Source: a bacterium
GTDB taxonomy: Bacteria; JAMCPX01
Direction: 5' to 3'
DNA length: 31,306 nt
Assembly: GCA_037439545.1 (NCBI GenBank)
Contig: JBBIVV010000025.1
Location: 1-31,306 of the forward strand
The notes beneath the pieces are model-generated. The model had not been told where the DNA came from. It worked only from the letters and a program-made list of their open reading frames with translations, and searched no databases. Positions within the stretch are counted from its first letter, which is position 1. The number at the start of each line of letters is the position of its first letter. The translations under genes were made by a program, and so were the position numbers. Positions 1 to 10,287 of the stretch are shown one piece after another.

Positions 1-23
1 AGCACTTTAGCTCACTTGTGTAC

Positions 24-54
24 TTGAAAATATTATTCGTATGCTTTATATAAT
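24..54 (+). promoter_or_regulatory. Putative sigma70-type promoter of the uORF-TBDR operon
   Basis: TTGAAA at 24-29 and a perfect TATAAT at 49-54 (19-bp spacer). The uORF ATG is at 60, about where transcription would start. Confidence 0.55.
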
Positions 55-59
55 GCAAT

Positions 60-368
60 ATGCCTTCTAAAGCTCCCATGATAACTAATGCACGTTTTGT
101 AAGGATATCACTTGTATCTCTTTATTTATCCATAATCATCTTTCTTCCATTCTTGCATGATCATCCCCTGGAACTCGGCAGGCCTGAACCTCCGGATTGT
201 CCCGCGCACTCGTTTATTATAGCAAGCTGCGGTGTCGTAAATTATGTTATTCCAACAGTACTACTGTTCTTTACTTTCATCTATGTACTGCCGGTCAGTT
301 TCATCAGAGTTAAATATACTGTTCTTTCAGCTATCAGAGAAAGAGCACCTCCTTCGTTCGTTTTCTAA
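60..368 (+). CDS. DUF2946/CruR/CutF-like regulatory leader peptide (uORF) with C-terminal RAPP arrest motif
   Basis: 102 aa (alternative start ATG 78). N-terminal hydrophobic segment, HDH...DCPAH candidate metal-ligand cluster, second hydrophobic segment, ends RERAPPSFVF. Lies directly upstream of a TonB-dependent receptor. Confidence 0.8.
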   Translation: MPSKAPMITNARFVRISLVSLYLSIIIFLPFLHDHPLELGRPEPPDCPAHSFIIASCGVVNYVIPTVLLFFTFIYVLPVSFIRVKYTVLSAIRERAPPSFVF

Positions 369-570
369 TATATCCCATATCTCATAACCATTACGGGCCG
401 GCGATGTTCCTCAACGAATACGGTATAGTGTTTTAGGTAATACGCAATTCTGTGCCTGATTCTGAATCCGGTTCTTGTCGTTCTCACAGATCAATATCGT
501 GCATTACATTATTATACCGGAACCGGACACAATGCTCTCCCGTAATAAATAAAACAACGAAAAAGGAGGT
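347..570 (+). promoter_or_regulatory. SD-sequestering RNA structure (translational attenuator) for the TBDR gene
   Basis: ACCTCCTT (347-354) is the exact reverse complement of AAGGAGGT (563-570, receptor SD). Further pairings: 355-358/556-559, 360-364/551-555, 390-397/539-546 and 467-474/520-527. Confidence 0.7.
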
Positions 571-573
571 TTC

Positions 574-2829
574 ATGCAACTTATAAAAGCACTTTTACTG
601 TTTCCGCTTATGAGCGGTTTATGCATGGTTGCTGCAAGAGCAAGCACGATGCCTTCACCAGGCACACTCATCGTGCATGTTTCAATAGGTGATACAGGTA
701 AGCCTTTGTCCGGCGCTCTTATTACCGCATCGGGCATTGTGGCAACAGGCGGCATTACGGTTTCCGGTACCACGAATAAAGACGGTCAGTGTGTAATAGG
801 CGGCATGATACCGGTGAAATACACACTCAAAGTAAATTCAAAGGGCTATGCAGAACGGACAGAGAATATCGATATTATGAGCGGCGAAGTGTCGCTCTAT
901 ACGATAAGCTTATACAACGAGCTTGTTTATAATGTTCATGCAAAGGCATTGATTATAGACACAAAAAGTTCGGCGTCTTCTGCCAAGATCTCTCAGCAGA
1001 CCGTATCAACTCTGGCAGCGAGCAATAACCTGTCAAAGATCCTGTATACCGTTCCCGGTGCCGCACAGGGACCTTTTGGTGAGGTACACTTCCGCGGCGC
1101 GCATACCGAGATAACATACAGGATAGATGGTGTTGATATACCTTCCGCTGTTTCCGGCAGCTTTACCGATATAATGGATCCCCAAGACATACAGAGCATC
1201 GATGTCCTGACGGGCGGCTATCCTGCAGAGTACGGCAACAGCCTCGCAGGTGTAGTAAACATTGTGACTAGGCACAACACAGAGAAGGAAATAGGCTTCA
1301 GCGAAGGCAATTACACCACAAACGACATCAACTTCGATGTAGCGGACAGCAAAGGGGCATTTGATTACCACGTGTCAGGCATCAGCTACCATACGGACCG
1401 GGGAGTTGATACGCCTGTCGTTACCCCCCTGCACGATGAACTGTTCAAAAATGCACTGCTCGGTGACTTCGGCTATGTGGTAGATAACAACGACAAGCTG
1501 ACCTTACTGTTATCGGGCAACATATCAAAATATCAAATCCCTAATACGGACGTGCAGCAGTCTCTGGGCGTCAATGACAACCAGAACGAGTCCAATGATT
1601 TCGAGGTACTGATATGGCACCATGATTTTTCAAACGACTCAAACCTCTCCATGTCACAGTACAGGAGAGGTTCGACACTCAGCGCTGATGGAAGCCCCGC
1701 GGATCTTTACGGTGGGACTGCTACATCTCCTGCTTTTCTGAACAACGTCGTAGAATCATACCTCGACTACGGAACGCAGGCTGACTACACAAACAATACG
1801 ATAAAGTACAACCGTATAAAGGCTGGCATAGGATACAAGTATATGATCAACAACCAGTCATTCTATCTCGAGGAGAATCCATCGTCATATATGCCCTTTT
1901 TTGACGTCCATGTAGACAGGTCGTATGAAGGCAGCGGCTATGTCCAGGATGAATTCCATTTCGCCCCGGTAACGGTGAACGCAGGACTGAGGTATGACTA
2001 TCTCAACCAGTACATTACCACGAACCAACTCAGCCCGCGTATCGGCATAGCATTGGAGCTTTTCAGGACAAATACCATCCACGGCTACTATGGGAGGTTT
2101 TTCCAGCCCGCGCCGTTTGAGAATATCCACGTCAACTCGATACCCATGTTTGCAAACCAGAACATGAGCATACCTCTGAAGCCCGAACAGGACCACTACT
2201 TCGAGGTTGGAGACCAGCAGAAGATAGGTAATTATCTGCTGGCAAAACTAACATGGTACTACAAATTAATGACCAATGTCATAGACTATAACCAACTGCT
2301 CAATTCCAACATCTATGTGCCGTACAACATCGAGGCAGGATACACGAGAGGCATAGAATTCAGTCTGAAATCGAGAGAGGTATCCGGACTGTCGGGTGAA
2401 TTTAACATGGCGTGGGAAAAATCGCAGGGGAAGGGCGCTATCACAGGCGGATTGTTCACCGTCGCTCCGGTACCGCCCGGGTATTTCTATTTTGATCACG
2501 ATCAGACGTATACGTCTTCGGCACTGCTCAATTACCGGTATAACCGGTTCTGGAGCATGCTGGATCTGGAATACGGAAGCGGTCTTCCGTATGGAGACAA
2601 TACCGTAACAGGTGAGATGAACTATCTCAAAGTACCTCCGCATACTATTGCCGATCTGTATCTGGGGTATAATTTCAGCAGGAGATTTTATCTCGGCAAG
2701 TCAGCCCTGGTAATCGATATCGGCAATATTCTGAACACATCGTACCTGATAAACCAGCAGAACGGATTTAACAATACGCACTGGGGCAGTCCCCGTACTA
2801 TAACGGTCCTGTTTAAAAAATATTTCTGA
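574..2829 (+). CDS. TonB-dependent outer-membrane receptor with N-terminal carboxypeptidase-regulatory-like domain
   Basis: Signal peptide; plug motifs (RG...IDG, IDVLTGGYPAEYG, GVVNIVT); barrel motifs (AGLRYD, SPRIG, LKPE, NILN); terminal Phe; strong SD; followed by exbB/exbD/tonB. Confidence 0.93.
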   Translation: MQLIKALLLFPLMSGLCMVAARASTMPSPGTLIVHVSIGDTGKPLSGALITASGIVATGGITVSGTTNKDGQCVIGGMIPVKYTLKVNSKGYAERTENIDIMSGEVSLYTISLYNELVYNVHAKALIIDTKSSASSAKISQQTVSTLAASNNLSKILYTVPGAAQGPFGEVHFRGAHTEITYRIDGVDIPSAVSGSFTDIMDPQDIQSIDVLTGGYPAEYGNSLAGVVNIVTRHNTEKEIGFSEGNYTTNDINFDVADSKGAFDYHVSGISYHTDRGVDTPVVTPLHDELFKNALLGDFGYVVDNNDKLTLLLSGNISKYQIPNTDVQQSLGVNDNQNESNDFEVLIWHHDFSNDSNLSMSQYRRGSTLSADGSPADLYGGTATSPAFLNNVVESYLDYGTQADYTNNTIKYNRIKAGIGYKYMINNQSFYLEENPSSYMPFFDVHVDRSYEGSGYVQDEFHFAPVTVNAGLRYDYLNQYITTNQLSPRIGIALELFRTNTIHGYYGRFFQPAPFENIHVNSIPMFANQNMSIPLKPEQDHYFEVGDQQKIGNYLLAKLTWYYKLMTNVIDYNQLLNSNIYVPYNIEAGYTRGIEFSLKSREVSGLSGEFNMAWEKSQGKGAITGGLFTVAPVPPGYFYFDHDQTYTSSALLNYRYNRFWSMLDLEYGSGLPYGDNTVTGEMNYLKVPPHTIADLYLGYNFSRRFYLGKSALVIDIGNILNTSYLINQQNGFNNTHWGSPRTITVLFKKYF

Positions 2830-2837
2830 GGTGAACA

Positions 2838-3464
2838 ATGCAAAACATAGCTCAAGCGATAAGTTTTATAATGAAAGGCGGGGTAATGATGTACCCCCTT
2901 TTGCTCCTATCGGTAGTTTCGATGTCGTTGATCATAGAGCGACTGATATTCTTCGGCAACATAAAGGACCCGGGTATCGGACTGCTCCATAAGATAAAAC
3001 AACTGGTGGATGCCGGAAAAACAGAGGACATGAGGACATTACTGTCGACCCAGAAGACGCCGGTTGCGGACGTGCTCACGGTCGGTGTCGACCATATCGA
3101 TGCAGATATGAGCGATATGGACATTGCCATGGAGCACTATGCATTGAGTATTATTCCGAAGCTCGAAAGCAAGCTTTGGGTACTCGACACCATCATCACC
3201 ATGGCGCCCCTGCTCGGACTGCTCGGTACCATTATCGGTATGATCAACGCGTTCCAGATATTCTCCAATAAAGGCCTGAACCAGCCTACCGCTATATCCG
3301 GAGGTGTAGGCGAGGCGCTCATAGCGACCGCGACCGGACTTATCGTGGCAGTCCTTACACTCCTGTTTTACAACTACTTCAACACAAGGGTAAGGCGCAT
3401 AACGAAGGACATGGAGTTTGCCGCAAACGAGTTTATAAAGTTCGTGAAGCAGGGACGGAAATGA
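2838..3464 (+). CDS. exbB: MotA/TolQ/ExbB proton channel protein
   Basis: APLLGLLGTIIGMI and GEALIATATGL signature helices; operon context. Confidence 0.92.
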   Translation: MQNIAQAISFIMKGGVMMYPLLLLSVVSMSLIIERLIFFGNIKDPGIGLLHKIKQLVDAGKTEDMRTLLSTQKTPVADVLTVGVDHIDADMSDMDIAMEHYALSIIPKLESKLWVLDTIITMAPLLGLLGTIIGMINAFQIFSNKGLNQPTAISGGVGEALIATATGLIVAVLTLLFYNYFNTRVRRITKDMEFAANEFIKFVKQGRK

Positions 3465-3865
3465 AGCTAAGGCAATTGGAACAGCCTAAGAAGGCACGGA
3501 TAGAGGTCATAAACATGATCGACGTGATATTCTTTCTGCTTGTCTTTTTTATGGTAACATCGGCCTCCATTATAGCCATGAAGGGCATGAAAGTGAATTT
3601 GCCGCAGGCATCCACGGTCAGGGCTACGGATACCAAATTTACAACCATCACCATAACAAAAGATCAAAAACTCTTTATCGACGGCAAGGATACCGATACG
3701 GAAAGACTTTATGGACAGCTTTCGGACGAGCTGGCAAAGGACCCCGATAAAGTGGTCGTGATCAACGCGGACAAGGATTCAAACTATGGCTATGTCGTCA
3801 ACATAATGGACATATCCAGGAAGGCTGGTGCGACAAAATTCGCCATCGCAGCGGTAACGAAATAA
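3461..3865 (+). CDS. exbD: Biopolymer transporter ExbD
   Basis: INMIDVIFFLLVFFMV transmembrane helix with the conserved Asp, VNLP and NADK motifs; 4-nt overlap with exbB. Confidence 0.92.
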   Translation: MKLRQLEQPKKARIEVINMIDVIFFLLVFFMVTSASIIAMKGMKVNLPQASTVRATDTKFTTITITKDQKLFIDGKDTDTERLYGQLSDELAKDPDKVVVINADKDSNYGYVVNIMDISRKAGATKFAIAAVTK

Positions 3866-3868
3866 TCT

Positions 3869-4495
3869 ATGGAAGCAGAACAGCGGGAAAATTTTTTAAT
3901 TGCCGGGATTATAATTGCGGTAATGTTCCATCTTGTGGTGTTTTATTTCATAGGGTGGTCAAACCTGTTCAAAAGGCAACAACCGGAAAAAATCTTGATG
4001 CCTATAACAATGCTGTTTAAGTCTCCGGTTGAGATGAACAAGCCTGAAATGCATGTTCGTGTGAAGCAGGTTGTCCACATACCATCACATCGTGTAAAAC
4101 AATCTTTCAATACAGGGCATAATAAATTCCTGTCCAGTGTTGCCAAAACAAATACAAGTGCCGGGTTTTCAGTACCACATGGAGGAAATATAACACCGGG
4201 TACGGTCTTGTCCGGACAGTCTAATAGTTCATTGCCCCCTCTTCCGGTCTTCAACCCTATGCCTGTTATACCCACTGACCTCAGGGCACAAAGATACAAT
4301 ACATCAGTACGGGTTGAATTTATTGTAAATAAAGACGCAACATTTAGAATTAAGCTCCTTTCATCGACAGGCTACGATGAACTGGACAGAAAGGTAATAA
4401 GCACGCTGAAAAAATGGAAGTTCTCCCCTGCAACAATAAACGGCCGACCCGCGAAAGGCACCCTCAAACTCCGCATACAGTTTTCGGTAAATTAG
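3869..4495 (+). CDS. tonB: Energy transducer TonB
   Basis: N-terminal TM with His (AVMFH), linker, TonB C-terminal domain (SSTGYDELDR...WKFSPA). Confidence 0.88.
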   Translation: MEAEQRENFLIAGIIIAVMFHLVVFYFIGWSNLFKRQQPEKILMPITMLFKSPVEMNKPEMHVRVKQVVHIPSHRVKQSFNTGHNKFLSSVAKTNTSAGFSVPHGGNITPGTVLSGQSNSSLPPLPVFNPMPVIPTDLRAQRYNTSVRVEFIVNKDATFRIKLLSSTGYDELDRKVISTLKKWKFSPATINGRPAKGTLKLRIQFSVN

Positions 4496-4616: not shown

Positions 4617-5513
4617 ATGGAACATACTTTTGAGGCATTTAAAACCTATCTCAGTATAGAGAAGGGTGCATCAAACAATACCATAGATGCCTACCTTTCG
4701 GACTTAGGACAATTTACAGCATTTTTAAAAAGCCTTGATCCTCGGAAGTCCATCGAGTCCGCCGGTATCCTTGAATTGAGGGGGTTCTCAGCCTCGCTTT
4801 TAAAAACCGAAAAAAAGAGCTCCGTGGGAAGAAAGCTTGCTGCATTAAAAACCTTCTATAAGTTTTTACTCAGGGAGCATGTGGTCGAGATGAATCCCGC
4901 AGAACTGATATCCATACCGAAGAAGGACCAGATGCTGCCGGGGTTCCTCAATATCGACGAGATATTCGGTTTGCTCGAATTGCCGGATAAAACAAAGGTG
5001 TTCGGTTTAAGGGACAGGGCCATACTTGAATTGTTTTATGCAAGCGGGCTGCGTGTCTCGGAACTCGTGGGACTGGATATTGAAAATATCGATATTAATA
5101 TAAGGTATGTAAGAGTCACAGGAAAAGGAAGGAAAGAACGCATAGTGCCTGTCAACGACAAGGCTTTACAGGTCATTAAAAATTATCTCGAAATGAGGAA
5201 GAGCGCTTTCAAAAACACCGGCGGGCAGGCGCTTTTTATAAATAAGTACGGGAAGAGGTTAACCAGAAGGGCAGTCGGATTGATTGTGAAGAAATATATG
5301 ATAAAGTCAGGCATAAACAAACATATAAGTCCTCACTCTTTACGGCATACGTTTGCAACACACCTGCTCGATGCCGGTGCTGACCTCAGGTTGATCCAGG
5401 AGTTTCTTGGACATTCCAGTATATCGACCACTCAGATTTACACGCATACAAGTATGGATAAATTGATGAAGGTTTATGACGATGCGCACCCGCGGGCGCA
5501 CAAGGGGAAGTAG
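4617..5513 (+). CDS. xerC: Tyrosine recombinase XerC
   Basis: GLRVSEL, GKGRKER, HSLRHTFATHL and LGHSSISTTQIYT catalytic motifs; ~300 aa; conserved position upstream of hslVU. Confidence 0.88.
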   Translation: MEHTFEAFKTYLSIEKGASNNTIDAYLSDLGQFTAFLKSLDPRKSIESAGILELRGFSASLLKTEKKSSVGRKLAALKTFYKFLLREHVVEMNPAELISIPKKDQMLPGFLNIDEIFGLLELPDKTKVFGLRDRAILELFYASGLRVSELVGLDIENIDINIRYVRVTGKGRKERIVPVNDKALQVIKNYLEMRKSAFKNTGGQALFINKYGKRLTRRAVGLIVKKYMIKSGINKHISPHSLRHTFATHLLDAGADLRLIQEFLGHSSISTTQIYTHTSMDKLMKVYDDAHPRAHKGK

Positions 5514-5585: not shown

Positions 5586-6113
5586 ATGTTTGAAGGAACT
5601 ACAATAATAGCAGTCAGGCACAACGGCAAGGTTGTCATGGCTGGAGACGGACAGGTAACAATCGGCGACACTATCATGAAGCATACGGCAAAAAAGGTCA
5701 GGAGGCTTTATAATGATACCGTGCTGGTAGGCTTTGCGGGCTCTACTGCCGATGCCTTTACGCTCTTCGGCAGGTTTGAGGCGAAATTGGAAGAATTCAG
5801 AGGCAACCTTATGAAAGCAGCGGTTCAGCTTGCCAAGGACTGGAGGACGGATAAGATCCTGCGCAGGTTGGAAGCACTTCTTATTGCAGCTGATAAATCA
5901 GCATCATTGCTGTTGTCAGGCAACGGAGATGTAATAGAGCCGGACGACAATATTATTGCAATAGGCTCGGGAGGAACGTATGCTCTTGCAGCGGCGAGGG
6001 CGCTGATAAAATATTCCAATCTCGATGCAAAAGCGATAGCCGAGAATTCGATGAAGATTGCTTCGGATATCTGTATTTACACAAACAGCACTATTACGGT
6101 AGAGGAACTATAA
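5586..6113 (+). CDS. hslV: ATP-dependent protease subunit HslV
   Basis: N-terminal TT nucleophile, [16 protein letters not shown] and AIGSGG motifs. Confidence 0.97.
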
Positions 6114-6127
6114 AGAGGTAAAGTAAA

Positions 6128-7546
6128 ATGAGAAAGACGAGAAATGCTGTCAGCAAGCTTGACAGACCGGAACAAATTGAGCCAAGCGATGCACTCCTGC
6201 CTGTTGCTATAGTCCAGGAACTGAACAGATACATCGTTGGCCAGAAAGATGCCAAAAAGATGGTTGCTATAGCCTTAAGGAACAGGTGGCGCAGACAGCA
6301 TGTGCCTGCTGAGATAAGGGATGAAATAGCACCCAAGAATATTATCATGATAGGTCCGACAGGTATCGGCAAGACGGAGATCGCAAGAAGGCTCGCCAAG
6401 CTTGCGCAGGCTCCTTTTATAAAAGTCGAGGCTTCAAAGTATACGGAGGTCGGCTATGTCGGAAGGGACGTGGAGTCCATCGTAAGGGACATTGTGGAGA
6501 TATCCGTTAAAATGGTCAGAGAGGAGGAGGAAGACAAGCTCCTGCCGAAGGCTGAAGAACTTACGGAGGAAAGGCTTCTTGATCTGCTGCTCCCGATAAA
6601 GAAAAAGCCGGTGAATAACAAACCGCAGGAAGGCGAGCAGAAGGTGCTTGAGGTCGTTGAAGATACGAAGAGCACACGGGAAAAATTCAGGGTAATGCTC
6701 AGGGAGGGCAAATTCGACAACAGGTATGTCGAGATGGACATACAATATATGCCCATGCCGGTCATTGAAGTCTTTTCGGGGATGGGAAGCGATGAAATGG
6801 AATTCAATCTCAGAGAGATGTTTGAGACCATGATGCCGAAGAAAACGAAGAAAAAAAAGATAGACATAAACGAGGCAAGGGAACTTATCATGCAGCAGGA
6901 ACTTGAAAAGCTTATCGATATGGACAAGGTTGTGAGAACAGCGATAAAAAAGGTCGAGGAATCGGGTATTGTATTCGTGGATGAGATAGACAAGATAGCA
7001 AGCAAGGATTCAGGCTATGGCCCGGATGTATCGAGAGAAGGTGTACAGAGGGACCTGCTTCCCTTGATAGAAGGCACGACTGTTATGACAAAGTACGGAA
7101 TGGTCAGGACCGACCACATGCTTTTTATAGCAGCGGGCGCTTTTCATGTAAGCAAGCCTTCCGATCTCATTCCGGAACTTCAGGGCAGGTTTCCCATAAG
7201 GGTCGAGCTTGAACCGCTCACGAAGGAGGATTTTGTGCGGATACTTACGGAGCCCGACAATGCCTTGACAAAACAGTATGTCGAGCTATTAAAAACAGAG
7301 AAAGTGGAACTTGTTTTTACGAAGGATGCGATAGAAAAACTGGCAGAAATAGCAAGCATAAGCAATGAGAGACTTGAAAATATCGGTGCAAGGAGGCTGC
7401 ACACCGTCATGGAAAGGCTGCTCGAGGACATATCGTTCGATACGTCAAAATATAGAGGCGATAAGATTACGATAGATGAAAAGTATGTCGGTGAAAAACT
7501 GAATCCGATCCTGAAGAACGAAGACCTGAGCAAGTATATATTATAA
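6128..7546 (+). CDS. hslU: ATP-dependent protease ATPase subunit HslU
   Basis: ALRNRWRR, Walker [23 protein letters not shown] and ENIGARRL motifs. Confidence 0.97.
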
Positions 7547-7548
7547 AA

Positions 7549-8418
7549 ATGGAAAAGTTCATTCAAAAGGCAGCGGTTCTCATAGAGGCTTTACCGTATA
7601 TAAAACAGTTTTACGGAAAAACGTTTGTGTTTAAATTCGGCGGGCATGCGATGCTCGATGAGCAGTTGAAAGAGAATTTTGCCCGCGACATTATACTGCT
7701 CTGGTATGTAGGTCTGAAGCCGGTCATAGTGCACGGCGGAGGACCGCAGATAGATGACCTGTTGAAACAGCTCGGGAAGGAAAGCAGGTTCGTCAACGGC
7801 CTCCGTGTCACGGACAGCAAGACGATGGATGTCGTGGAAATGGTGCTCGTCGGCAAGATCAATAAAGATATAGTCGGCTTGATCAATCATCACGGCGGCA
7901 AGGCTGTCGGCATAAGCGGCAAAGACGGCAAGCTTATGACCGCTAAAAAGATAGAAATGCAGAAAGGCGATGGCACCGGGCCTGATGTGGACATGGGCAG
8001 GACTGGTGATATCGTGAACACGGATGCCAAGCTCATAAGAACACTTGAACTGAACCATTTTATACCTGTTATAGCTCCTGTTGCAGTGGGTGACGACGGA
8101 CAGGCATTCAATGTGAACGCGGATATCGCTGCTGCAAAAATAGCCTCGTCTTTAAAAGCGGAAAAGCTCATTCTGCTCACGGACGTAGACGGGGTCCTGG
8201 ACAGCAACGGCAAACTATTGTCGGAGATAAAATCGAATGATGTCGATAAACTTATACGTTCCGGCGTGATCACAGGCGGCATGATACCAAAGGTGACCTA
8301 TGCTCTTGAAGCAATAACCCACGGTGTGAAGAAATGCCATATTATCGATGGACGAATCCCTCATGCAGTACTGCTCGAGATCTTTACGCCGGAAGGCGTG
8401 GGGACAGAGATAACGTAG
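7549..8418 (+). CDS. argB: Acetylglutamate kinase
   Basis: EALPYI, KFGG, VHGGGPQI, GLRVTD, NVNAD and GGMIPK motifs. Confidence 0.96.
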   Translation: MEKFIQKAAVLIEALPYIKQFYGKTFVFKFGGHAMLDEQLKENFARDIILLWYVGLKPVIVHGGGPQIDDLLKQLGKESRFVNGLRVTDSKTMDVVEMVLVGKINKDIVGLINHHGGKAVGISGKDGKLMTAKKIEMQKGDGTGPDVDMGRTGDIVNTDAKLIRTLELNHFIPVIAPVAVGDDGQAFNVNADIAAAKIASSLKAEKLILLTDVDGVLDSNGKLLSEIKSNDVDKLIRSGVITGGMIPKVTYALEAITHGVKKCHIIDGRIPHAVLLEIFTPEGVGTEIT

Positions 8419-8446: not shown

Positions 8447-9529
8447 TCAATTGTTGAACGGTTCTTCGCGCCAGTATAAAAGAGAGAATACGTGGCTTGA
8501 CCTGTTCCTGTAATATACCGTCCTGATTATATAAACTACGCCGTTTTCAATAATACCGATGCCGTCCACTGAAAAATAATCGCTTTTCACATCAATGTAC
8601 CCATTTACGGCCTGGACCTGCGAATTATTAAGATCGACGCCGACCTTTGCAAGCTCTCCGGTAAATTCCCCTATCGACATAAACGGCTTCTGCTCTCTTG
8701 CCGATACGATATCCTGCAACTGCGAATCATCCAGGCTATACATGGCTTGCAACAATACGGGCGCCGCAGTATTGACATTGATCTTGAACGGTGAATCCGG
8801 GTTATAGTATTTCGGGAATACCGTAAAAATAGGGCTGTCCATGGCATCGGGTGCGGGTATCTGTCCGGGCTGACCTGTTATACCCATAAGAACATTGAAG
8901 GCTTTGCTATCGATACCCTTTATCATTTTTAATTCTGTGATTGAATCAAGAGGCGCATCCTTGGCCATGTATGGAGGATCGAGGCTTTCATAATAATCAC
9001 TCTCAGCACCGTTCGCCCTGGGCAATTCATCCGAATCTATCCAGTCCTCTATGGCGTCTACAATGGATGGATCAAGCTTCAACTGTTGAAAGAGCCTCCT
9101 GCATATGCCGTCAAGGGTCTGGTTTGCCGTTATCGTGTCAGAACCGATGAGTGCATTGAGATCGAACTTACCCGCTTCATCGCTAATCATGCCGCGCATA
9201 ATGCCAATGTTCTGATCTTTTATCGTTACGGGCAAAGGGAAATTGGATATCTGCGACCATAACTGCGCATCTTTGTTCAGTTCGCCGACAACAGGGTAAT
9301 CCGCACCAGGACTTGTGCTCATGTCGGTCAGCAATAGACTCTTTTGTATTTCCAATGCAGCGATTGCAATGCGCCTTGTCTGAAGACTGTCCCGCATGCG
9401 GGATGTTATGTCGACATTTACCCTCGTCGTGTATGCAAATTCGACTACCACGGCAGCAAGGATTGCCACGATGAGCAGCACAAGGATCAATGCCTGTCCG
9501 TTCTCGCTGTTCTCCTTCTTCGGTTTCAT
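8447..9529 (-). CDS. gspK: Type II secretion minor pseudopilin GspK
   Basis: G|xALILVLL N-terminus lacking Glu5; DWIDSD, GAESDYY, INVNTA and DVKSDYF motifs. Confidence 0.92.
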   Translation of the reverse strand: MKPKKENSENGQALILVLLIVAILAAVVVEFAYTTRVNVDITSRMRDSLQTRRIAIAALEIQKSLLLTDMSTSPGADYPVVGELNKDAQLWSQISNFPLPVTIKDQNIGIMRGMISDEAGKFDLNALIGSDTITANQTLDGICRRLFQQLKLDPSIVDAIEDWIDSDELPRANGAESDYYESLDPPYMAKDAPLDSITELKMIKGIDSKAFNVLMGITGQPGQIPAPDAMDSPIFTVFPKYYNPDSPFKINVNTAAPVLLQAMYSLDDSQLQDIVSAREQKPFMSIGEFTGELAKVGVDLNNSQVQAVNGYIDVKSDYFSVDGIGIIENGVVYIIRTVYYRNRSSHVFSLLYWREEPFNN

Positions 9530-10287
9530 TGACCCATCCTCAATTTTACAATCTCCCTGAACGGCACATCGACGCCATTCTCATCCTTTAATACAAGCTC
9601 TACAAGCACTGCGTACGGAAGATAGTTTTTCCCCTGCAGTCTCGTGTCCCATTGGTCAACCCACTGTTTTGTGTTGGAATCAAAAAAATAAAAGGTAAGA
9701 CTGACTACGGATTTTGTTATGATAAATCCCGGTCCCTGGGTCAGAGGCACGGTGGTGAAAAACGGCTGCTCCCGGTGAATCAGATAAACCGTGTTTTTTT
9801 CCTCATCAATCTGCGAATCGTATGCAATGGCTGCATAATCGGAGCCCTGTACCTGATTGCCGATGGGTATGTTGACATGGGCCATGCTTGTGAAGAACAG
9901 CTTGTCCATAGGATTATTGTTCCACTCATCCCTTATCCCTATAAAATAGGTATAGGGGCTTATCTGCTGAGCAGGATTTATATCAAGATATGCGCTTGTG
10001 AGTTCACGTTTTAAGTGTGACATGATCTGCATGCCTACCTGATAAACCTCATTGCGCCGTTCAACATACGATTTTGCATTGAAAGCCGTGAAGAAAGACA
10101 AGTAAACGAATGAAAGAATGGCGCCGAGTATTGCAACGGATATAAGCGCCTCGAGAAGCGTAAACCCCGTTACCTGATTGTCCTTCGGGGAACGATTTGA
10201 TTTTTCCGGGTCTTTACTCTTGTCAGAGAAAGCTTCTGACGGGGTACGCCGGCTGTTGTTTTTATAGATATCGGACTGCATCGGCAT
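9526..10287 (-). CDS. gspJ: Type II secretion minor pseudopilin GspJ
   Basis: G|FTLLE prepilin motif after a 41-aa leader; C-terminal W..W...LP.AV motif; position between gspI and gspK. Confidence 0.88.
   Translation of the reverse strand: MPMQSDIYKNNSRRTPSEAFSDKSKDPEKSNRSPKDNQVTGFTLLEALISVAILGAILSFVYLSFFTAFNAKSYVERRNEVYQVGMQIMSHLKRELTSAYLDINPAQQISPYTYFIGIRDEWNNNPMDKLFFTSMAHVNIPIGNQVQGSDYAAIAYDSQIDEEKNTVYLIHREQPFFTTVPLTQGPGFIITKSVVSLTFYFFDSNTKQWVDQWDTRLQGKNYLPYAVLVELVLKDENGVDVPFREIVKLRMGQ
10164..10245. repeat. 82-bp inverted-repeat-bounded element inside the GspJ leader peptide
   Basis: Arms ACCCCGTTA (10164-10172) and TGACGGGGT (10237-10245); similar to the element in the gspG leader. Confidence 0.6.

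Follow-up and report, generated by a model that had tools for sequence, protein, structure and literature searches.

What does this stretch of DNA use the end of its first small gene for, a gene that closes with the ribosome-arresting motif Arg-Ala-Pro-Pro (RAPP) and stands, with a long spacer between them, before the gene of a TonB-dependent receptor? The stretch is contig JBBIVV010000025.1 of assembly GCA_037439545.1, from a bacterium of the GTDB lineage Bacteria; JAMCPX01, and by the window we mean all of the 31,306 nucleotides (nt) that were analysed. An earlier note, made from the letters alone, had proposed that the two proline codons of RAPP are at the same time the anti-Shine-Dalgarno (anti-SD) sequence of the receptor gene, so that a stalled ribosome would cover them and free the receptor's Shine-Dalgarno (SD) sequence, while its release would let the RNA refold. 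From the sequences, from folding models and by analogy with described systems, we lean to this reading without great assurance: the open reading frame (ORF) 60-368 may well be a regulatory RAPP arrest leader whose Pro-Pro codons mask the receptor SD, with arrest unmasking it and release shutting expression off. That the ribosome arrests, in which register, on what signal and with which state as ON is what we infer.

The evidence that carries this reading is found in the codons of the motif, compared at 11 loci (the window, L021, L003, L022, L023, L024, L025, L026, L030, L031 and L032), which make nine distinct loci, as L025 is nearly the same as L026, and L031 as L032. Not counted were L027, with a leader truncated where its contig stops, the 12-residue matches L028 and L029, L009-L020 (E > 1e-4) and G008, where the spacer runs off the contig. 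RAPP is invariant at all 11 loci, as [D/E]RAPP, 3-4 codons before the stop. Its Arg is encoded by four types of codon (AGA, AGG, CGA and CGG) and its Ala by four as well (GCA, GCC, GCG and GCU); with the residues fixed and the choice of Arg and Ala codons free, this is the pattern expected from selection on the peptide. The prolines show a further constraint: the first is CCU in 11/11 loci and the second in 10/11, together 21 of 22 codons, and CCUCC stands at this codon pair in every locus, with other CCUCC sites coming and going. At the four other invariant Pro columns of the leader, CCU accounts for 11 of 44 codons, with 3-4 codon types in each column. The pairwise third-base identity among the nine distinct sequences is 1.00 and 0.78 at the two RAPP prolines, 0.17-0.44 at seven other invariant four-fold columns, and 0.45 (289/640) over all shared four-fold residues elsewhere, so that by these control columns synonymous sites are otherwise near saturation.

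Codon usage gives the background for this bias. In the long ORFs of the source genome 27% of Pro codons are CCT, and 9.5% of the 1102 Pro-Pro pairs are CCTCCT; a simple binomial for 17 of 18 CCU gives a value of about 1e-9, which overstates the case, since the loci share ancestry. It is reported that synonymous changes of the RAPP codons leave the arrest of ApdA and ApdP intact, with CCA-CCC and CCC-CCA pairs still arresting (PMC7897499), and because RAPP arrest is codon-independent, arrest itself is an unlikely cause of the frozen Pro codons. Judged from these comparisons of sequence, the six bases CCUCCU are selected as RNA, beyond the selection for Pro-Pro.

The partner of these six bases was then sought in the fold of the window. 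The anti-SD core ACCTCCTT faces AAGGAGGT, which includes the receptor's AGGAGG; the two arms are extended by CGTT/AACG (355-358/556-559) and GTTTT/AAAAC (360-364/551-555), and between them lie the nested stems ATTACGGG/CCCGTAAT (390-397/539-546) and TCCGGTTC/GAACCGGA (467-474/520-527). All of these stretches, as named in the earlier note, were located in the sequence at the coordinates given there, and the minimum-energy fold of 330-600 (-61.1 kcal/mol) contains every named helix: 347-353:564-570 (7 bp), 354-358:556-560 (5 bp) and 360-364:551-555 (5 bp) at the ends, and 390-397:539-546 (8 bp) and 467-475:519-527 (9 bp) in the spacer. In the centroid the closing helix and the 390/539 stem are kept and the 467/519 stem is lost. 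The fold has z = -2.45, with 4 of 200 dinucleotide shuffles folding equally well, and the duplex energy of arm on arm is -20.2 kcal/mol. Over both strands of the 31.3-kb window ACCTCCTT occurs in three copies, where 0.92 is expected from shuffles; of the three, one forms the arm at 347 and another is the SD as read on the other strand. The minimum-energy fold also pairs 335-346 with 589-600, that is, the bases just 5' of RAPP with receptor codons 6-9, and the receptor start codon thereby lies in an 18-nt internal loop that is closed on both sides. An Rfam scan of 1-3000 at E <= 10 showed no riboswitch in the spacer; a Clostridium-PBP match on the other strand was dismissed as chance level (21.9 bits, against a gathering score of 94.4). 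No intrinsic terminator was predicted by a scan of 1-700.

For the relatives, each locus was folded from 30 nt 5' of the Arg codon of RAPP to 33 nt beyond the receptor start. The spacer from leader to receptor is 145-416 nt long in the homologues (the pairing distance in the window is ~210 nt), and over these lengths the minimum-energy fold pairs the receptor AGGAGG with the Pro-Pro codons in 9/11 loci, with six pairs in eight of them and five pairs in L024. The ensemble probability of SD-RAPP pairing is at least 0.91 in 8/11 loci, and the arm duplex energies lie between -13.5 and -22.8 kcal/mol over all 11; helix extensions past the core vary by locus, and the flanking pairs could not be set in one register. 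The claim that the RAPP prolines double as the anti-SD of the receptor is thus supported in the family, by the invariant motif, by the CCU codons and by the pairing predicted in nine of the loci.

The receptor SD is also paired more often than is usual for such a sequence. Its probability of being paired to anything is 0.82-1.00 in the 11 loci, and 60 other genes of the same genome with an AGGAGG SD, folded as a control in windows of equal length, have a mean of 0.62, with 10% of them reaching 0.9. When the ribosome footprint centred on RAPP was forced to be unpaired, at a cost of 8-22 kcal/mol, the probability dropped to 0.18-0.74 in the 11 loci, about the genomic background. A fold with the stall site masked had been asked for in the earlier note. 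The support from folding varies with context, and in the wider one described below the pairing holds in only four of the nine distinct loci.

Several results, however, weigh against this reading. L024 carries CCU CCG at Pro-Pro. In L022 and L023 the AGGAGG is not paired with the Pro-Pro codons in the minimum-energy fold, and in the 3/11 loci below the value given above, the pairing probability reaches just 0.32-0.46 already in the short context. When the folded stretch is lengthened by 150 nt at both ends, SD-RAPP pairing is 0.91-1.00 in 4/9 distinct loci and 0.01-0.22 in the other five; the added upstream context is translated in vivo, so its weight is uncertain. A ranking of upstream 48-nt windows by duplex energy with the ribosome-binding site (RBS) region was tried and failed to single out RAPP, which is the best partner in just 1/11 loci; in the other 10 a rival upstream window, mostly inside the translated leader, scores 0.6-11.5 kcal/mol lower, these rival windows being gapped and placed on different codons in different loci. 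There are extra CCUCC motifs in the spacers of L021, L025/L026 and L030, and the window has a second anti-SD-like 7-mer, AACCTCC at 187-193, in the codons of E43-P44-P45, which is complementary to GGAGGTT at 565-571. Finally, the core of the helix has no room to covary, since other constraints already fix the SD and, in each Pro codon, the first two bases; the covariation that the earlier note had asked to be looked for did not appear, as RNAalifold on the four closest loci gave no pair of the core helix that is changed on both sides. The support for the helix comes from frozen synonymous sites, not from compensatory change.

The nested stems, which had been thought to bring the two ends together, did not prove to be a conserved scaffold and were rejected as such. 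When both ends were held fixed and the letters of the spacer were shuffled (12 shuffles per locus), the end pairing stayed about equally probable, so that in silico the stems can be dispensed with; in the window the mean was 0.95 for the shuffles against 0.97 for the native spacer, with 9 of the 12 reaching the native value; L023 alone has 0/12 shuffles that reach native pairing. The stems are conserved at most in four close relatives: the ATTACGG/CCGTAAT stem is common to four close loci only, with mismatches, one G-U and no compensatory change, and the 467/519 stem is specific to the window and not family-wide.

If the Pro-Pro codons act on the receptor as we propose, the leader would be a RAPP arrest-peptide regulatory gene heading an operon of TonB receptor, ExbB, ExbD and TonB. 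As long as the end of the leader is free of ribosomes, CCU CCU and the next few bases would pair with the receptor AGGAGG, and receptor translation would be held down. A ribosome arrested at the motif would have Pro97 (348-350) in the P site and Pro98 (351-353) in the A site; this register is taken from ApdA, ApdP and CruR, for which the P site is reported to hold the third RAPP codon and the A site the fourth, with a toeprint 15-17 nt 3' of the first P-site base (PMC7897499, PMC12992588). With the register so assumed, the 5' arm lies, in silico, no farther than about -13/+16 nt from the P-site codon at 348, and the arrested ribosome would thus enclose the whole arm in its mRNA channel, by which the SD would be free and the receptor made, with ExbB, ExbD and TonB probably translated along with it during arrest. 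On release, with termination four codons on, the helix would form and receptor translation would drop. The signal for release may be sensed by the His/Cys loop of the nascent chain, as copper is for CruR.

The helix and the codon constraint require only the passage of a ribosome, which brings in an account without programmed arrest, that is, a long-range translational coupling in which transit opens the helix and RAPP is kept for the function of the protein or for a mild pause. It is also reported that a stem masking an SD is opened for a short time even by a leader that is defective in arrest (PMC10987492). Still, this account seems unlikely to us: the R and A of RAPP are invariant as peptide with free codon choice, RAPP is described as strongly excluded from ordinary proteins and as arresting in varied contexts (PMC12992588), and among the 13 small ORFs (35-200 codons) of the source genome with R[AG]P[PG] at most 12 residues from the stop, only the leader looks like a credible RAPP-tailed gene. 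An explanation in which the pairing is incidental, the leader being an ordinary small membrane protein of the receptor system, its CCU CCU kept for a tRNA or codon-pair effect, and a strong SD finding a nearby CCUCC, can call on the over-prediction of SD pairing by folding programs (the background mean of 0.62), on the other upstream windows with equal or lower duplex energies, and on the loss of SD-RAPP pairing in five of the nine loci in the wider context. It has to face the constancy of CCUCC at this one codon pair with the other sites variable, and the report that synonymous codons are immaterial to RAPP arrest in the tested systems (PMC7897499); with third-base conservation confined to both RAPP Pro codons, the sequences make it the least likely of the rivals, and we give it very little credence.

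The output known for CruR is the other alternative, slightly more doubtful in our judgement than coupling by transit: a ribosome arrested at RAPP would block the loading of Rho or its way to the polymerase, premature termination would take place in the spacer, and SD pairing would be secondary or absent in vivo. It draws its strength from CruR-bfrG, the nearest system to have been characterised and likewise one with a long intergenic region, for which this mechanism is shown; in the main text of that paper, where Rho-dependent termination is the published output, the terms SD and RBS do not occur (PMC9426467). No RAPP leader before a TonB receptor other than CruR has been characterised, and that CruR works by Rho termination instead of SD masking counts against our reading (PMC9426467). 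Moreover, the spacers of our loci are long, and in 1-700 of the window no intrinsic terminator is predicted. Untranslated receptor mRNA would be open to Rho anyway, so both outputs could act together. What Rho control leaves unexplained are the frozen CCU CCU codons. Besides, the spacers are A/U-rich, with C minus G of -0.03 to +0.07 and no clear excess of C over G, whereas the rut region of CruR is described as a C>G bubble (PMC9426467).

The reading of an arrest leader with stall codons as anti-SD also requires that ORF 60-368 is a gene, and here the comparison gives a firm answer. Homologues of the leader have 51-71% identity across the searches (database proteins, family genomes and metagenome loci), with four database proteins of 103-110 amino acids at 55-71%. 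Matches at E <= 5e-33 were present in 7/11 other genomes of the same family, and the same genome search gave no credible match outside the family (best 3e-4); three further loci were added by scans of genome and metagenome contigs, in which three metagenome loci match. In alignment A1 there are 28 invariant residues, including H33, H35, E43, P44, C47, P48 and R95-A96-P97-P98. An orthologous receptor gene follows on the same strand, 3' of the leader, in 11/11 loci, with AGGAGG before its start in 11/11, so that the leader precedes the receptor with a long spacer in all of them, a layout like that of CruR and CutF. In 12 family genomes the leader and the receptor are present or missing together: receptor orthologues are found in 9/12, and G003, G007 and G011, without a leader match, are also without a receptor, the exception being G008, where the contig ends in the spacer. 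The ORF is thus, on comparative grounds, a real conserved gene, constantly linked to the receptor. In G009 a second, partial copy of the leader (L027; residues 11-54, 66% identity), cut by the contig end, is present besides the full locus L026, and in L021 and L030 an additional CCTCC lies in FLP codons.

As to what the leader protein may be, its hydrophobic stretches, perhaps with a signal or membrane segment at the N terminus, and the helices of an AlphaFold2 model (10-32 and 49-93; a low-confidence model with a predicted local distance difference test score of 61 and a predicted template modelling score of 0.31) suggest two helices joined by a loop that carries the His/Cys stretch. This loop is a candidate for the part that senses a ligand, possibly a metal, if it is likened to the CXXC of CruR and to the CxxxC of CutF (PMC9426467, PMC9973294). 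Neither CXXC nor CxxxC is present in the leader; its single invariant Cys is C47, in CP[EA][HN], and H33 and H35 are further candidate ligands. No family was matched meaningfully in Pfam and NCBIfam searches of the leader. The DUF2946 model (PF11162) matched 0/9 aligned leaders at E <= 10, and nothing in the whole source genome at E <= 10; the 11 other genomes of the family, searched at E <= 0.001, gave nothing either. When 1.84 billion representatives were searched with a profile, the result was solely one protein (cluster) of the leader's own family, and no distant relatives.

Among described systems, the class of RAPP/RGPP small proteins encoded before TonB receptors is reported to be over-represented (PMC12992588), and CruR (Bp2923, DUF2946) of Bordetella pertussis is the member that has been worked out. 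There copper, through CXXC, relieves the RAPP arrest and Rho then terminates before bfrG (PMC9426467); the arrest was shown in vitro and toeprinted with the same register (PMC12992588). Like CruR, our leader is small and opens an operon, and it has a putative hydrophobic segment at the N terminus, a conserved Cys motif and a C-terminal RAPP few codons from the stop, followed by a long spacer and a TonB-dependent receptor, and CruR arrest is described as needed for expression of the receptor (PMC9426467). Unlike CruR, it has no DUF2946 match, has HxH...CP[EA][HN] with one invariant Cys in place of CXXC, has two predicted helices, and its Pro-Pro codons are a conserved, predicted anti-SD. In six DUF2946 loci of other genomes we counted seven R[AG]PP tails with varied Pro codons, of which 3/7 have CCUCC.

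CutF (DUF2946), which precedes cutO in Rhodobacter capsulatus, shares a metal-sensing nascent leader, a proline-rich C-terminal stall and the opening of an mRNA structure that shields the SD (PMC9973294; bioRxiv 10.1101/2025.02.05.636593), with metal sensing extended to our leader only by analogy. In CutF, though, it is a local stem-loop between the genes that contains the anti-SD, and a detoxifying oxidase is switched on as copper makes the stall last longer (PMC9973294), whereas here the anti-SD would be the stall codons, the predicted helix reaches across 145-416 nt, an importer is encoded downstream and RAPP is the motif. On the sequence features the system resembles a cross of CruR with CutF, yet it is no detectable member of their family. 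The earlier note had compared it with secM and mifM; the logic of unmasking an SD is indeed shared, but the closer relatives CruR and CutF, and the Rho output of CruR (PMC9426467), were missed. In SecM-secA, MifM-yidC2 and uDF (secDF2), too, a ribosome arrested close to the leader's 3' end disrupts a helix that sequesters the SD; these leaders, however, monitor the Sec/YidC machinery and have compact stem-loops beside the stall (PMC10987492), while here an operon for a TonB receptor is the target, and a long distance separates the partner strands.

ApdA and ApdP likewise are small proteins, of the membrane or secreted, that carry RAPP at the C terminus and whose genes precede the regulated one, and their arrest, with Pro in both P and A sites, is codon-independent (PMC7897499, PMC10951233); for ApcA, ApdA and ApdP the authors report that they found no SD-sequestering hairpin (PMC7897499), whereas here a pairing is predicted and the codons are conserved. 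On the side of the RNA, a preprint describes anti-SD-like sequences of the CCUCC type, hundreds of nt away, which in vivo form pairs with the RBS and prevent translation, and of which coding sequences are depleted (PMC12697547). There such sequences are harmful; here one has been conserved, at a place that a ribosome is able to cover. In the literature searched (abstracts and matched passages), no account of stall codons that serve as anti-SD for a TonB receptor gene was found, and the novelty, as far as sequence can tell, would lie in a conserved anti-SD made of the stall codons themselves and acting over a long, variable spacer.

Upstream of the leader the window offers just 59 nt, as it begins at a contig end. 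A consensus promoter scan of 1-700 found none. By eye, an arrangement of TTGAAA, ~17 nt, TTTATATA(T) and then the leader ATG 5-10 nt on, without an SD, is seen in 7/9 distinct loci (the window at 24-62, L021, L003, L022, L023, L030 and L031/L032). In the window the ATG is only 5 nt past TATATAAT, and the 5' untranslated region would therefore be very short or absent, which suggests from the sequence that the leader mRNA is leaderless or nearly so. A conserved stretch aaattttaaagcc...gataagtcaatag lies ~60-100 nt 5' of the TTGAAA box in L021, L023, L030 and L031/L032; the contig of the window starts too late to include it, and it may represent an operator, or else the last part of a gene next to the leader.

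The coordinates of the features are collected in Table 1. For the receptor, the NCBIfam matches are weak and all far under their cut-offs, so that no substrate can be assigned from them. The presence of ExbB, ExbD and TonB genes 3' of the receptor was checked within the window. They are followed by a tyrosine recombinase (4617-5513), by proteasome-type HslV-like and AAA+ HslU-like genes (5586-7546) and by an amino-acid kinase (7549-8418), and on the opposite strand by type II secretion/pilus-like K and J genes (8447-10287).

Table 1. Features of the leader-receptor locus (positions in the window).
Feature	Position	Strand	Description
Putative promoter of leader	24-54	+	TTGAAA 24-29, TATATAAT 47-54; read by eye
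Leader gene	60-368	+	102-aa ORF, two predicted helices, C terminus RERAPPSFVF-stop
Inter-helix loop codons	156-209	+	Invariant H33, H35, E43, P44, C47, P48; H50 mostly conserved
5' arm of predicted long-range helix	335-364	+	Anti-SD core ACCTCCTT 347-354, extensions to 364; minimum-energy fold
RAPP codons	342-353	+	AGA GCA CCT CCT, in frame with ORF 60-368; residues 95-98 of 102
Spacer, leader stop to 3' arm	369-550	+	Predicted stems 390-397:539-546 and 467-475:519-527
3' arm of predicted helix	551-570	+	AAGGAGGT 563-570; includes receptor SD AGGAGG 564-569
TonB-dependent receptor	574-2829	+	751 aa, ATG at 574; Pfam Plug 1.3e-09, CarboxypepD_reg 9.9e-09
ExbB, ExbD, TonB	2838-4495	+	ExbB 2838-3464, ExbD 3461-3865, TonB 3869-4495; Pfam MotA_ExbB 2.4e-31, ExbD 4.8e-32, TonB_C 7.6e-10

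To hypothesize beyond this locus, stall codons held in the decoding centre may serve as a repressing strand and so switch on a receptor operon up to ~400 nt away; the leader may be a membrane hairpin (HxH...CPxH) of a new kind that senses a metal or another ligand, has no sequence relation to DUF2946 and is probably translated from a leaderless mRNA; and anti-SDs made of stall codons may be a general, unpublished mode of output of RAPP/RGPP leaders before TonB receptors, of which CruR-type Rho control would be one branch. We regard this wider view as possible rather than probable. The locus matters since the class of RAPP leaders before TonB receptors is recently recognised and barely characterised, and a simple answer is offered here to how a stall is passed on to the downstream gene; the family of the present leader has itself no annotation and no detectable relatives beyond one uncultured lineage. 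If our reading is true, the same six bases encode the stalling prolines and mask the ribosome-binding site of the receptor, and the conservation at the level of codons would allow the role of the peptide to be told apart from the role of the RNA by mutation. Nature would then also provide an example of a distal anti-SD, a kind of sequence that genes are normally selected to avoid, apparently kept for regulation over hundreds of nucleotides.

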